64,000 nt of DNA from positions 74,300 to 138,299 of IMG/VR virus record IMGVR_UViG_3300006737_000017. The stretch is one strand, 5' to 3'. Source of the DNA: a virus. Positions 113 to 4,497 of this stretch are shown in pieces. The position numbers and the translations under genes were made by a program. The notes beneath the pieces are model-generated. The model was not told the origin of the DNA, made no database searches, and saw nothing but the letters and a program-made list of their open reading frames with translations. The number at the start of each line of letters is the position of its first letter. Position 1 is the first letter of the stretch.

Positions 113-635
113 AAAAATAAAGGTTGTAAATAGAGAACAAGAATATATTGTTGAATATAGAAAGGGTACAAAATGGAACGAAAGACCTGATTGCACCTAC
201 AGATATATGTCTTGTAAATTATGCGGTCACATGACAGTAGTAGGAGAAGACGCTACAGCAGTTACTTGTCACCATTGTGTTAATGAAATGGTAGAAGGCC
301 CACAATTTTCAGCAAGAAGAATAAGCTCTGGTCGCCCAGCTGGTTGGCATTTTATGGCTGAGTACGTTGATAAAGATGGTAACGTATTTCACAAAGGTAA
401 AGAGCAACCTAAATTAAAAGGTACAATAGAAGCTACTGTCATTGTAAAAAAACAAAAAATTTCAAAGACAGAAAAGAATACTATGATCAGAGAAGCTAAC
501 ACTAGAATTCACAAATTAAAGAAAGACCTTAAGAATGCAAAGCTCAAGAAAGAAATCAAAAGTCTTACAAGAGAAATAACTAGATTATCTAAAATTGCAA
601 GAGGTAAAATACCAAGGTCAAAAAGATTTAAGTAA
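96..635 (+). CDS. Zn-ribbon hypothetical protein with basic coiled-coil C-terminus
   Basis: CKLC...CHHC pair; Lys-rich helical tail. Confidence 0.7.
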   Translation: MAKRNKKIKVVNREQEYIVEYRKGTKWNERPDCTYRYMSCKLCGHMTVVGEDATAVTCHHCVNEMVEGPQFSARRISSGRPAGWHFMAEYVDKDGNVFHKGKEQPKLKGTIEATVIVKKQKISKTEKNTMIREANTRIHKLKKDLKNAKLKKEIKSLTREITRLSKIARGKIPRSKRFK

Positions 636-638
636 ATT

Positions 639-672
639 ATTTGGATAAGTCGAAAAAATTTATTATATTGTA
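639..672 (+). promoter_or_regulatory. Host-RNAP-type (early/middle) promoter, copy 1
   Basis: ATTTGGATAAGTCGAAAAAATTTATTATATTGTA, 33/34 identical to 19391-19424. TTTG-N20-TATATT resembles the Bacteroidota -33/-7 layout. Confidence 0.75.
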
Positions 673-707
673 TACTAATAGAAAACAAAACTTATTAGGA
701 GATTACA

Positions 708-929
708 ATGGCAACGCACGACAAACTTATTTACTATAGAAGCGAATTTAGTAGAGAAGCAAAAAAGATAGAAATGGAAATTCCTCCGAATTTAACAATA
801 GCAGAGTTTAAGATTGTATGTAGAAGATTAGCTTCTTCTTTGGGTTATGCACCTGAATCAGTAGCTAATGAATTTGGAAGAGATAAAGAAGTTGGAAATA
901 AAAAACAATTAAAATTATTATTTGACTAA
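708..929 (+). CDS. Hypothetical protein
   Basis: 73 aa ORF with AGGAG RBS, downstream of the promoter motif. Confidence 0.7.
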   Translation: MATHDKLIYYRSEFSREAKKIEMEIPPNLTIAEFKIVCRRLASSLGYAPESVANEFGRDKEVGNKKQLKLLFD

Positions 930-2529: not shown

Positions 2530-3268
2530 TTTAAGCCCAGTAGATTTATTCTACAAAGAACTAGAAAAACCTAAAGAAGTTAAATTAACTAGAAGAGGTA
2601 GACCTAGAAAAACTAAGATGTATTTTACACAAGTAACAGAAGATGCTATTATAGCATACAACCAAGAGTCTGATGTAAGAAAAAGAAACAAGGTTTGGAA
2701 TGATCATATTAATGGTGCAATATTCAAATTAGCAGAAAACATAATTAACAGGTTTAAGTTTATGTACATGGATGGTGGTATTGTAGAAGTTAAATCTGAA
2801 GTTGTTTCTTTCCTATTAACAAAGCTGCCTAAATATACTTCTGATAAAGGTAAAGCTTTTTCTTACTTTTCAATAGTAGCAAAAAATTATTTAATACAAA
2901 ATAACAATAAAAATTATAAAAGATTGATAAATAAAGCTGGTGTTAATCATATAGATTGGCAAAGAAATATAGGTAATGAAATGCATTTGTCTAAAACGCA
3001 TGATGGTATATTAGACTTTATGACTCAATTTATAGAATGGTATGAAGAAAAAATAGATCAAAAGTTTAGATTAGATAGGGACAAAGCTATTGCTTATGCA
3101 GTAATGGAATTATTTAAGAAAAGAGACAACATAGAAACTTATAATAAAAAAGCTCTTTATATTCTCATAAGAGAGATGACTGGAGCTAAAACACAGTATA
3201 TAACCAAAGTAGTAAAGCAGATAAAAAAAGAGTATGAAACTCTCTACTTAAAATACCAAACCAGATAG
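2522..3268 (+). CDS. Late-transcription sigma factor (T4 gp55-like)
   Basis: Sigma region 2-like LAENIINRFKF..KY...KAFSYFSIVAKNYLIQ, resembling the gp55 AYFTQ motif. Confidence 0.7.
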   Translation: MDNLSPVDLFYKELEKPKEVKLTRRGRPRKTKMYFTQVTEDAIIAYNQESDVRKRNKVWNDHINGAIFKLAENIINRFKFMYMDGGIVEVKSEVVSFLLTKLPKYTSDKGKAFSYFSIVAKNYLIQNNNKNYKRLINKAGVNHIDWQRNIGNEMHLSKTHDGILDFMTQFIEWYEEKIDQKFRLDRDKAIAYAVMELFKKRDNIETYNKKALYILIREMTGAKTQYITKVVKQIKKEYETLYLKYQTR

Positions 3269-3280
3269 TTATAATAAAGA

Positions 3281-3313
3281 AAAAGGTTATATAAAAGGTT
3301 TCTAAAAAAGGTT
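3281..3313 (+). repeat. Three direct repeats of AAAAGGTT
   Basis: Copies at 3281, 3293 and 3306, upstream of the OMP gene. Confidence 0.6.
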
Positions 3314-3327
3314 ATGGTATTGAACTC

Positions 3328-3808
3328 CGAAAGCATGTTAATTTTATTAAGAAAATAACAAGGAGAATTATATGAAAAATTTGATTTTAACAATGATGCT
3401 AGTATGCGGCATGTTCGCAGCAAATGCACAAACAAGTGGTGACTGGTACGTAGGTACTGGAGATGTAGCAAATACAGCATGGACTGATTGGTCTGTGTCA
3501 CCTACAATTGGATATGGTGTTATGGACAACCTAATGGTTGGTTGCTCAGTATCTCAAGCAGATTCAACTGTTGATATGGATATTGATTTTCACGCAAGAT
3601 ATTTTGTAAAAGGATATTTTGCTTATTTAGCAACAGACGGGCTATCTACGGATGGTATGTCTATTGGGGCAGGTAAGATGTTTACCTTACGTAATAATAT
3701 TTACGTTGACCCTAAAGTGGTTTACAACACAGGAGAAAAAACTACAAACCTTACATTAGGGTTTGGGTTTAGATTCTAATTAACCCATAATGGGTCAACA
3801 TGCTTTCG
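3328..3808. repeat. 12-bp perfect inverted repeat flanking the OMP gene
   Basis: CGAAAGCATGTT (3328-3339) and AACATGCTTTCG (3797-3808). Confidence 0.85.
3372..3779 (+). CDS. Small outer-membrane beta-barrel protein
   Basis: Sec signal peptide ending ANA-Q, alternating amphipathic strands, C-terminal BAM-type signal LGFGFRF. Confidence 0.8.
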   Translation: MKNLILTMMLVCGMFAANAQTSGDWYVGTGDVANTAWTDWSVSPTIGYGVMDNLMVGCSVSQADSTVDMDIDFHARYFVKGYFAYLATDGLSTDGMSIGAGKMFTLRNNIYVDPKVVYNTGEKTTNLTLGFGFRF

Positions 3809-3854
3809 ATGCAATTTTGCAACAGAATACTTATTAAAACAATAGGAGAAAACA

Positions 3855-4079
3855 ATGGATTCAGTAATTAAATACGTAAATGGTTTCTTTGGTGGTTTAG
3901 GTACTATTATGTTAGCTATCTTACCAGTAACGATTCTATGGCAAGTACTTACGGGTACTACTGTATTTGGAATGGATGTAATTGCAAATTTATCAGCTCT
4001 TGTAACTTCACTAGGTAATGGTGGTTTTGTAGGATTGGTAGTATTAGTAATTGTTGCTTCATTCTTTATGAAGAAATAG
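3855..4079 (+). CDS. Small inner-membrane protein (about 2 TM helices)
   Basis: 74 aa, almost wholly hydrophobic/Gly, ends KK; strong AGGAG RBS. Confidence 0.8.
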   Translation: MDSVIKYVNGFFGGLGTIMLAILPVTILWQVLTGTTVFGMDVIANLSALVTSLGNGGFVGLVVLVIVASFFMKK

Positions 4080-4096
4080 TTATATAAATAAAAAGG

Positions 4097-4122
4097 GCCC
4101 TCGTTAATTCGGGGGCTTTTTT
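4097..4122 (+). terminator. Intrinsic terminator
   Basis: GCCCTCG-TTAATT-CGGGGGC followed by a T-run. Confidence 0.85.
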
Positions 4123-4132
4123 GTGTGTTTAA

Positions 4133-4142
4133 GATATTTATA
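4133..4142 (+). promoter_or_regulatory. Putative late promoter GATATTTATA
   Basis: Recurrent intergenic motif upstream of structural operons. Confidence 0.7.
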
Positions 4143-4158
4143 ATAAAGGGAATGATAT

Positions 4159-4497
4159 ATGGATAAAGAAATATTTAAGGGAAAAACGTTTTCTGATTTG
4201 TGTGAGGATATATATACAAATTCTGTAAAGAAAGAAAAACAAATTTCAGCTTTGATAAAAGATTTACAACCAATGATCAAGTCAATTGGGGATGCAACTG
4301 TTATTGTACCGATAATAAAAGAATATTTAGAAGTTGGTGTAAAGAACGATGAGCATTTAATAAAGATGGCAGCTATAGTACAAAGGGCTCAATCTAGAGG
4401 CGATTCAACTGAGTCTGGTGGAATGCTTTTAACTGAAGAAGAAAAACGCCATCTATTAGAAACTGTTGAAGAACTAAACTCGGAAGATAAAAAATAA
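4159..4497 (+). CDS. Helical hypothetical protein (possibly small terminase subunit)
   Basis: 112 aa helical ORF heading a late operon. The function is a guess from size and helicity. Confidence 0.45.
   Translation: MDKEIFKGKTFSDLCEDIYTNSVKKEKQISALIKDLQPMIKSIGDATVIVPIIKEYLEVGVKNDEHLIKMAAIVQRAQSRGDSTESGGMLLTEEEKRHLLETVEELNSEDKK

Follow-up and report, generated by a model that had tools for sequence, protein, structure and literature searches.

Covarying leader and trailer sequences point to an RNA helix around an outer-membrane-protein-like gene in a phage

The sequences that flank a small outer-membrane-protein-like (OMP-like) gene in an uncultured marine phage (IMG/VR record IMGVR_UViG_3300006737_000017) are, by sequence comparison, clearly complementary to one another above chance once relatives are compared. 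The comparison shows leader/trailer pairing that is under selection while the sequence of the arms drifts, with changes that fit an RNA of the + strand. As the flanks are still complementary in relatives despite differing in sequence, pairing in the mRNA is very probable. The resulting leader–trailer helix would loop out the OMP-like cistron, and on balance we think it probable that it works post-transcriptionally, in mRNA processing or stability. The DNA analysed here (the window) is 64,000 nt long and covers positions 74,300 to 138,299 of the 138-kb record; all coordinates below are those of the window.

Table 1. Features of the locus in window coordinates.
Feature	Position	Strand	Remarks
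Promoter-like motif ATAGTTATA	3265-3273	+	One mismatch from ATATTTATA; 107 nt upstream of ATG
Two direct AAAAAGGTTAT boxes	3280-3290 and 3305-3315	+	Repeat family D7
Arm L, CGAAAGCATGTT	3328-3339	+	In leader; ends 22 nt before GGAG
Shine-Dalgarno GGAG of OMP-like gene	3362-3365	+	Outside both arms; read from sequence
OMP-like ORF, 135 aa	3372-3779	+	Putative signal peptide, C-terminal ...GFGFRF; would form the helix loop
Local hairpin ACCCA-TAA-TGGGT	3783-3795	+	Between stop codon and arm R; in MFE and centroid
Arm R, AACATGCTTTCG	3797-3808	+	Exact reverse complement of CGAAAGCATGTT; starts 18 nt past stop codon
Small hairpin TGCA-ATTT-TGCA	3810-3821	+	Followed by ACAGAA
Membrane-protein gene, 74 aa	3855-4079	+	Constant downstream partner
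Intrinsic terminator	4091-4122	+	13-pair stem, then T run; closes two-gene unit

The enclosed ORF, for which 1977 homologues were found, has a signal-like N-terminus and a C-terminal F. Its match to the Pfam family OMP_b-brl (E 0.011, 16.3 bits) lies below the cut-off of 28.7. The AlphaFold2 model is all-beta (pLDDT 73.6), and the best Foldseek matches of this model are 8-stranded transmembrane barrels (TM ~0.55–0.59, best E 8e-4); as modelled, the product would be a small beta-barrel that is outer-membrane-protein-like. Motifs of the ATATTTATA type stand ahead of about 35 phage genes, mostly 10–60 nt before the ATG, and the ATAGTTATA copy is presumably a promoter; its position at −107 implies an unusually long leader, which contains arm L. 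The GGTTAT boxes are found again in the leaders of relatives. The 74-aa gene is a same-strand downstream neighbour in 144 of the 160 related loci. The upstream neighbour is variable: a 248-aa gene is missing from 62 of the 150 loci with room for it, and the arms remain with the OMP-like gene. PHROGs holds no family for the OMP-like ORF, the 74-aa gene or the 248-aa gene. A protein search of the phage GenBank collection returned no match, the corresponding DNA search gave a single 94-nt match, in an unannotated uncultured phage, and no cultured relative came to light.

Within the phage itself, arms L and R form 12 of 12 pairs (100%) across 457 nt and enclose the GGAG and the whole ORF. A preliminary description of this DNA had named five pairings around the gene, the arms among them, and all five are present where it placed them. 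Statistics for this one genome are unremarkable. The window holds nine perfect inverted 12-mers at spacings of 20–600 nt, compared with 6.64 ± 3.16 in 100 dinucleotide shuffles, 99 of which contain at least one. A scan of intergenic DNA across the whole phage, dominated by AT-rich palindromic promoter motifs, gave scores as high as that of arms L and R for 1.7% of 1215 far-apart pairs and yielded no further convincing clamp. Taken alone and within one genome, the 12-nt repeat is not above chance. Folding of 3283–3850 places the 12-bp helix in both the MFE and the centroid structure (z −5.4). An Rfam search of 2800–4400 found nothing near a gathering score; the weak matches all fall on the terminator.

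For comparison we used 106 distinct related loci and counted covariation with purpose-written scripts. The leader/trailer stem score was at least 22 in 64 of the 106 loci, against 5.1% of shuffles, and at least 26 in 38, against 0.8%; it was below 20 in 30 loci, including the 12 most distant relatives, and two loci (L140 and L151) have one arm only. The arms comprise at least 14 different sequences and form helices of 8–20 bp. Over 12 sequence classes, the duplex energy of matched flanks summed to −243.7 kcal/mol, compared with −162.3 ± 14.5 kcal/mol for permuted partners, and none of 100,000 permutations matched the observed value. When 42 distinct rows were anchored on an AGC/GCT core, 74.9% of 458 cells were paired, a figure biased towards pairing because the anchored alignment derives from the helix search; the controls gave 56.3 ± 1.8% for shuffled partners (0 of 2000 reached the observed value) and 36–48% for slid registers.

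Changes on both sides that preserve Watson–Crick pairing occur in 10–13 of the 42 rows at offsets −5, −2, +2, +3 and +4. AGCGCG..CGCGCT of L009 and TGCGCG..CGCGCA of L012 differ by a compensatory pair, and one helix position is A-U in L056, G.U in L147 and G-C in L099. Among the interior transition-type single mismatches of 49 helices, read on the + strand, 10 are G.U and 2 are A.C, an excess that rests on about seven independent events against one, and over all anchored offsets, including those beyond the helix ends, A.C outnumbers G.U. The covariation between flanks of homologous loci that the preliminary description had proposed as a check is thus present. Its argument that G-U-type outer pairing favours RNA does not hold, since that outer pairing is not conserved, and the G.U pairs inside the conserved helix are the better evidence for RNA.

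The outer pairing in question joins GGTATT (3316–3321) to AATACT (3826–3831); among the 15 distinct loci that carry the window's arms, the window included, the best pairing beyond the arms is matched by 26–98% of shuffles. The pairing proposed between GTTAATT (3337–3343) and AATTAAC (3778–3784) likewise fails, as AATTAAC stands at the stop codon in the window alone, and it would compete with the 12-bp helix for GTT at 3337–3339. Both local hairpins, by contrast with these pairings, are kept in relatives, some of the variants being compensatory. The one at 3783–3795 recurs in forms that include TCCCA..TGGGA and GTCCA..TGGAC. At the small hairpin (3810–3821), most relatives have GGCA-ATNN-TGCC and then RCAAAAY, immediately upstream of the next gene's ribosome-binding site; 39 of 46 distinct contexts hold this type (35 GGCA/TGCC, 3 TGCA/TGCA and 1 GACA/TGTC) and 7 hold other hairpins. 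Of the 117 matches to its motif in viral contigs, 53 have the 74-aa gene as a neighbour, 2 have only the 248-aa gene and 62 have none of the three genes; some or all of the 64 matches away from the 74-aa gene may be chance. Of the multibranch RNA once envisaged, with the ORF as its loop, the conserved 12-bp helix, present in both predicted structures, and the local hairpins find support; the other two long-range pairings do not.

The scan of stems that enclose ORFs returned a second gene with the same arrangement. Among 162 phage ORFs the top two were hsp20 (38) and the OMP-like gene (30); the background is 17.5 ± 3.3. The two share a similar geometry, with arm L at −46 for hsp20 and −44 for the OMP-like gene, arm R at +9 and +13, and the promoter-like motif at −103 and −107, respectively. 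Arms of four sequence classes, which covary, were found in 10 of 16 hsp20 loci, and the hsp20 helices contribute two further G.U mismatches and no A.C; one arm only is present at the hsp20 loci L171–L174. The gene downstream of hsp20 is unrelated to the 74-aa gene and has just one relative in viral contigs, there is no small hairpin, and arm R is not separated from the following gene by a terminator. A divergent second OMP-like family that occupies the same slot has its own 10–11-bp arms in three of six loci.

In the mechanism that we favour, arms L and R would pair in the mRNA, and the OMP-like cistron, its own ribosome-binding site included, would be closed into a loop of some 460 nt; the surrounding late transcript would run into the 74-aa gene and end at the terminator. 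In one version, a host double-strand-specific nuclease of the RNase III type would excise the cistron while the two ends stay paired and protected; in the other, the uncut clamp would bar single-strand nucleases, in the manner of Bacillus subtilis hbs mRNA. A search of the phage record for its own RNase III or a dsRNA-binding domain found neither. Evidence on transcription comes from four sequencing runs, all as assembled contigs, in which starts, ends and rare inverted forms are invisible. RNA contigs from two studies cover arm L (3293–3599 and 3294–3512), and their starts hint weakly at a 5' end. Contigs from two metatranscriptome runs bridge arm R into the 74-aa gene (3738–4012 and 3738–4046), and both may break off at 3738 because of strain variation there. 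Each arm is covered by separate RNA contigs, none of which spans both, DNA carry-over in the libraries is possible, and the RNA runs leave parts of the stretch uncovered.

Functional pairing of 5' and 3' UTRs in bacterial-type mRNA has been documented for a handful only: hbs, icaR, RNAIII/hld and hok. In B. subtilis hbs mRNA, a 14-bp duplex between the UTRs modulates how RNase Y cleaves the leader (Braun, Durand and Condon 2017, PMC5737220). That duplex resembles the phage arrangement in being short (14 versus 12 bp), in joining the leader and trailer of a small gene and in not relying on cover of the ribosome-binding site. The hbs mRNA is cellular, monocistronic and studied in one species, whereas the phage case, known from sequence, involves a two-gene transcript, a second enclosed gene and covariation across many lineages. 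The leader–trailer helices of 16S and 23S rRNA are 30–44 bp long and contain an RNase III site, with more than 17 bp needed for E. coli 16S (Warner, Bundschuh and Fredrick 2023, PMC10250234). There, too, the flanks loop out a functional RNA, vary and covary, and small leader hairpins adjoin the helix; here, however, the helix has 8–20 bp (12 in the window) and the loop would be translated mRNA. By the rRNA measure the 12-bp helix is short for RNase III, and 18–20 bp is reached in some classes only (L106, L123 and L090).

By pairing its 5' and 3' UTRs, the tac/fbi fold-back of hok mRNA, from hok/Sok of plasmid R1, closes the full-length message of a small membrane-protein gene and stabilises it; that closure locks an anti-SD/SD stem, is relieved by 3' trimming and has an antisense RNA partner (PMC9841398). 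Unlike hok, the phage locus yielded no SD occlusion, conserved anti-SD or antisense gene. In Staphylococcus aureus icaR mRNA, UCCCC in the 3'UTR pairs with the ribosome-binding site and makes an RNase III substrate (PMC3868564, PMC7821165). The likeness is a 5'/3' interaction in one mRNA that could recruit RNase III, but icaR masks its ribosome-binding site and arm L stops short of it. A review states that the applicability of such 5'/3' UTR mechanisms to other genes needs investigation (PMC7821165). Our literature search, which covered openly accessible article text, found no paper on ORF-enclosing helices in phage mRNAs. The phage pairing shows compensatory mutations in many lineages, occurs at two unrelated accessory genes and travels with the gene across genomic contexts, which makes it a good system in which to study mRNA closure in bacteria.

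A role in translation strikes us as unlikely, though it merits weighing: the helix could hold the stop codon near the start for ribosome recycling, or restore the leader continuity of the downstream 74-aa gene, interrupted by the cistron, and keep that gene under the control of 5' leader elements. Relatives without the OMP-like gene have the arms, the GGCA..TGCC hairpin (which stays put) and the ribosome-binding site joined in a single uninterrupted leader ahead of the 74-aa gene, and classes B, C and H have a second copy of the small hairpin before the OMP-like gene's own ribosome-binding site. Arm R stands 2 nt past the stop codon in some classes (L106 and L090), so that a terminating ribosome would open it. 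Set against this reading, in no class does an arm cover the ribosome-binding site or the start codon, and masking of that site was rejected in the window as well, where arm L ends at 3339 and GGAG lies at 3362–3365. The hsp20 clamp, moreover, exists with an unrelated downstream gene and no small hairpin, and the MFE pairing between the 5' leader and the Shine-Dalgarno sequence of the downstream gene contains two G.U pairs and is missing from the centroid.

What is new here is that the two arms directly abut in relatives without the OMP-like gene. L021 reads arm, cistron, arm, and its close relative L314 has the same two arms adjacent; further empty sites (L369, GAGAGT/ACTCTC; L325, ATCG/CGAT; L322, CGC/GCG) match arm classes of gene-bearing loci. 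The abutting arms, in three of four distinct cases too short to fold as RNA, allow for an origin of the repeat at the DNA level and provide a testable lead on the gain and loss of accessory genes in phages. One such account, rather unlikely in our view, would make leader hairpins landing pads, with cistrons (OMP-like, hsp20) gained or lost, guided by structure, at the hairpin loop or palindrome centre, and with the split stem persisting as an RNA helix that keeps the leader working; if true, it would add a new way in which lytic phage genomes turn over gene cassettes, coupled to rescue at the RNA level.

We judge it quite improbable that the repeat is mainly a DNA-level feature, in which a cistron cassette is gained or lost at the centre of a palindrome, the flanking repeat is the split target and RNA pairing is a by-product. 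The clean presence and absence of the gene in L021 and L314, the matching and mostly unfoldable empty sites, and the persistence of the arms with the gene although the 248-aa neighbour varies would all suit it. Compensatory changes and G.U intermediates are found, however, among loci that all carry the OMP-like gene, so pairing is maintained across the 460-nt loop. The L021/L314 junctions, inspected by eye (in the MAFFT alignment the gap went to the left and was not split), show no target-site duplication or microhomology, the phage record has no transposase or recombinase, and the arm sequences are too diverse for a single sequence-specific enzyme. PeSLs are reportedly repeated copies of one conserved promoter–terminator motif in direct orientation; unlike them, the phage arms are inverted, locus-unique and lineage-specific. 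The PeSL cassettes of T4-type phages are short structured intergenic motifs that bound variable genes in large myoviruses and are tied to gene gain and loss (PMC2839356, PMC4122927).

That the helix is a long-range terminator, or sets the 3' ends of arm-L transcripts, is very improbable. The lack at hsp20 of a separate terminator ahead of the next gene would fit, but no U run follows arm R here (ATGCAATTTTGCA follows) or in other classes, a canonical terminator stands after the 74-aa gene, and in two runs RNA contigs extend across arm R into the 74-aa gene. The preliminary description had also raised ON/OFF inversion, with the arms as recombinase sites, which we regard as having next to no chance: the geometry of inverted repeats around a gene is all that speaks for it, whereas not one of the 160 related loci is inverted, no inversion joints occur among the run X3 DNA contigs, from which rare forms would be lost, the promoter-like motif lies outside the segment with the gene's ribosome-binding site inside, and the arm sequences differ between lineages. 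Its observation that no recombinase is encoded in the window extends to the whole 138-kb record (estimated 80% complete), which has no serine or tyrosine recombinase by match to Resolvase (PF00239) or Phage_integrase (PF00589). Chance complementarity in AT-rich intergenic DNA, for which the single-genome statistics would leave space, is refuted by the comparative tests and the hsp20 parallel, and its probability is negligible.

Two short motifs adjoin or lie within the arms. CUCC next to arm L suggested an anti-SD, an idea that was rejected, as CUCC is found there in classes A and B and not in C, D and F. Whereas the classes GCGCG, TAGCTAGCA, CCTCTAATC and AACCCTTGTAA do not have it, arm R in several classes contains GCTCT(C/T), which we take to resemble boxA.

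The window forms the final 64 kb of the 138,299-bp IMG/VR virus record, has a G+C content of 33%, carries nearly all of its genes on the + strand and includes baseplate-wedge and other myovirus-type genes. DNA and protein searches of the phage GenBank collection did not find the OMP-like gene in any cultured relative; in marine metagenomes, homologues of its ORF number 1977 proteins at E ≤ 0.001. The 135-aa protein has a signal-like N terminus and a C-terminal phenylalanine, and its match to Pfam OMP_b-brl falls under the cut-off. Its AlphaFold2 model is all-beta (pLDDT 73.6), with 8-stranded transmembrane barrels as the best Foldseek matches: a designed barrel (E 8e-4), the OprF N-domain, OmpW, OmpX and the OmpA transmembrane domain. 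The label 'OMP-like' is reasonable but not proven.

Features of the OMP-like locus and of related loci (window coordinates unless a locus is named; G000:C1 is the whole phage record, L162 the phage's own hsp20 locus, and other L numbers are related loci)
Feature	Coordinates	Strand	Remark
248-aa gene	end at 3268		family unknown
Promoter-like motif ATAGTTATA	3265-3273	+	
Intergenic leader, 103 nt	between promoter-like motif/248-aa gene and OMP-like ORF	+	
Arm L	3328-3339	+	leader
135-aa ORF	3372-3779	+	signal peptide
Arm R	3797-3808	+	trailer
Spacer, 75 nt	between 135-aa ORF and 74-aa gene	+	
74-aa membrane-protein gene	3855-4079	+	
Intrinsic terminator	4091-4122	+	strong
hsp20 leader/trailer helix arms	G000:C1:61040-61056 and 61511-61527 (L162:341-357 and 812-828)		outside window; geometry like that of the OMP-like gene
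Divergent 144-aa OMP-like gene	L337, L339, L351, ORF about 367-801		slot before 74-aa gene; own arms; C-terminus ...LGLAYRF

Within one genome, the exact 12-nt inverted repeat formed by arms L and R is unremarkable. Perfect inverted 12-mers within 600 nt number 9 in the window and 6.6 ± 3.2 in shuffles, and 1.7% of 1215 distant intergenic pairs from the whole phage score as high as the repeat; the case therefore depends on comparison with relatives. Two perfect 13-nt inverted repeats with partners less than 600 nt apart also occur in the window (53891-53903/54443-54455 and 61470-61482/61666-61678). All pairings that the preliminary description had listed around the gene are present at the positions it gave. 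In the predicted fold of 3283-3850 (MFE −152.6 kcal/mol, z −5.4), the MFE and centroid structures each include the two local hairpins as well as the 12-bp helix, whereas GGTATT/AATACT pairs in the MFE structure only, and neither it nor GTTAATT/AATTAAC is conserved among 15 loci with the window's arm sequence.

For the comparison, we sampled 80 related loci from viral contigs and the best 80 of 310 from metagenome contigs. The ORF was located in 156 of 161 loci, and 146 (window included), having sufficient flank, yielded 107 distinct flank pairs, or 106 after removal of one that contained N. The best ungapped leader/trailer stem scored at least 22 in 64 of the 106 distinct loci (shuffled trailers, 5.1%) and at least 26 in 38 (shuffles, 0.8%), and in the former 64 it began at a median of 46 nt upstream of the ATG and 14 nt downstream of the stop codon. 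Scores below 20 were obtained for 30 loci, including the 12 most distant relatives, in which spacers are short and arms absent, and a few bulged helices overlooked by the ungapped score. Loci L140 and L151 retain arm R in a different upstream context.

Arm sequences vary by lineage and fall into at least 14 classes, with leader/trailer pairs such as CGAAAGCATGT/ACATGCTTTCG, TTAGAGAGCTC/GAGCTCTCTAA, AGCGCGGTGATT/AATCACGCGCT, AATGAAGAGC/GCTCTTCATT, GAGAGCATTT/AAATGCTCTC, GCGCGATG/CATCGCGC, TAGCTAGCA/TGCTAGCTA, AATTTAGAATAGAGG/CCTCTAATCTAAATT, ACCTGAGC/GCTCAGGT and GGGCGCGTTG/CAACGCGCTC. With one representative from each of 12 classes, the duplex energies of matched flanks add up to −243.7 kcal/mol, compared with −162.3 ± 14.5 for permuted partners, and 0 of 100,000 permutations reached the observed sum. 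Because several classes have a GAGC/GCTC core in common, the matched partner stands alone in first place in only 4 rows and 6 columns of the 12 × 12 partner matrix. In an alignment of 42 distinct rows anchored on this core, which derives from a helix search and is biased towards pairing (the permutation test is free of that bias), pairing is seen in 74.9% of the 458 cells that lie outside the anchor, as against 56.3 ± 1.8% after partner shuffling (0 of 2000 reaching the observed value) and 36–48% in slid registers; both-sided Watson–Crick changes occur at five positions in 10–13 of the rows. Covariation of both flanks in homologous loci, the check named in the preliminary description, is thus found in the permutations and in the both-sided changes. 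The comparison shows a predicted long-range pairing, kept by selection, that encloses the cistron without touching its ribosome-binding site. In arm R of several classes (for example, L010, L080 and L007), a GCTCT(C/T) segment resembles the boxA antitermination element; other classes show no such resemblance.

The OMP-like gene stands upstream in 61 of 80 loci found with the 74-aa gene; in 9 the 248-aa gene is present without it, in 8 the search detected neither, and 2 are without room. Each of the six distinct loci examined among the 8 carries a second, divergent OMP-like gene in the same slot, with its own 10–11-bp arms (TTACAAGGGTT/AACCCTTGTAA) in three of the six. Where an OMP-like gene is truly absent, the two arms adjoin each other in the leader of the 74-aa gene, upstream of a small GGCA..TGCC hairpin. 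Locus L314 (~860-890) has the arms of L021 with just a 7-nt loop between them, the two loci differing cleanly by insertion or deletion of the entire cistron together with its ribosome-binding site; the adjoining arms of L369 (GAGAGT/ACTCTC), L325 (ATCG/CGAT) and L322 (CGC/GCG) are short perfect palindromes, and among these four a stable hairpin is predicted only for L314. The cistron therefore occupies a leader hairpin's loop or a palindrome's centre, and has apparently been gained or lost exactly at the stem, in more than one arm class.

A scan of leader/trailer stems across 162 phage ORFs (background 17.5 ± 3.3) placed hsp20 (38; 16–17 bp) and the OMP-like gene (30) at the top. The hsp20 helix is found in that gene's own MFE and centroid folds. 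Paired arms clamp hsp20 in 10 of 16 loci, with four unrelated arm classes whose arms covary, one of them, from a 160-kb phage, forming a helix of 21 bp; of the other loci, four have the leader arm only, one is truncated and one is without a stem.

The promoter-like motif ATATTTATA precedes about 35 phage genes, mostly 10–60 nt from the ATG. Because one-mismatch variants sit 107 nt upstream of the OMP-like gene and 103 nt upstream of hsp20, we infer that both have unusually long leaders containing arm L. Metatranscriptome contigs of relatives, which cannot show ends, start at 3293 and 3294 (two studies), a point past which a DNA contig continues, and another two RNA contigs, starting at 3738, extend over arm R into the 74-aa gene; they fit transcription of both arms and read-through. 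The motif form (T)GATATTTATA upstream of these ~35 genes occurs in the window at, for example, 4134, 6077, 23484, 31699, 37267, 50962, 54537 and 56415, and the phage portion preceding the window is enriched in another intergenic motif, TTTGGATAAGTCGAAA.

The helix probably acts in processing or stability. RNase III-type excision would release the cistron with paired and protected ends, as in rRNA leader–trailer stalks (PMC10250234); alternatively, an uncut clamp would hinder nuclease entry, as in hbs (PMC5737220). The 12 bp in the window are short for RNase III, some arm classes reach 18–20 bp, and a search of the phage record found no encoded RNase III. According to PMC7821165, leader–trailer pairing of this kind is known from few bacterial mRNAs; outside subscription journals and supplementary files, we found no literature description of such ORF-enclosing phage mRNA helices. 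The novelty lies in a phage-borne helix that recurs on two genes, covaries broadly and has arms that adjoin in relatives without the gene.

Rival to processing or stability are a translational role, including restoration of the 74-aa gene's leader, and a DNA-level origin, in which the repeat would be a cassette boundary. Mismatches bear on the choice between RNA and DNA. In 49 distinct helices, interior single mismatches of transition type comprise 10 G.U (+ strand) versus 2 A.C, with a further 19 of transversion type; corrected for shared descent and spurious AT-rich helices, these become about 5 independent G.U events versus 1. Another 2 G.U and 0 A.C come from the hsp20 helices, and one helix position reads A-U in L056, G.U in L147 and G-C in L099, a series that would be the route expected of RNA. 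When all anchored offsets are counted, including those beyond helix ends, A.C is commoner than G.U, and the G.U evidence is modest overall. The invertible ON/OFF segment of the preliminary description is ruled out as far as the data reach, with 0 of 160 loci inverted and no serine or tyrosine recombinase found in the phage record; in 144 of the 160 the 74-aa gene follows on the same strand, in 11 it is not found (9 without room) and in 5 a related match lies upstream on the same strand. A terminator role was rejected, as the helix has no U run and a scan located the terminator elsewhere.

Several smaller elements accompany the arms. TTAATTTTA lies immediately 3' of arm L in both clamped genes (window 3338-3346; G000:C1:61055-61063), which hold 2 of its 4 copies in the 138-kb phage. 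The stretch from the promoter-like motif to arm L holds two or three direct GGTTAT/GGTAAAGGTTAT boxes (window 3280-3315; leaders of relatives), which also occur in relatives without the OMP-like gene. Upstream of the 74-aa gene's ribosome-binding site, a small hairpin, GGCA-ATNN-TGCC, is followed by RCAAAAY (window 3810-3827, same site in relatives) and varies less in sequence than the arms do; in arm classes B, C and H, a covarying copy also stands upstream of the OMP-like gene's ribosome-binding site. This hairpin may serve as a site of protein binding or of processing.
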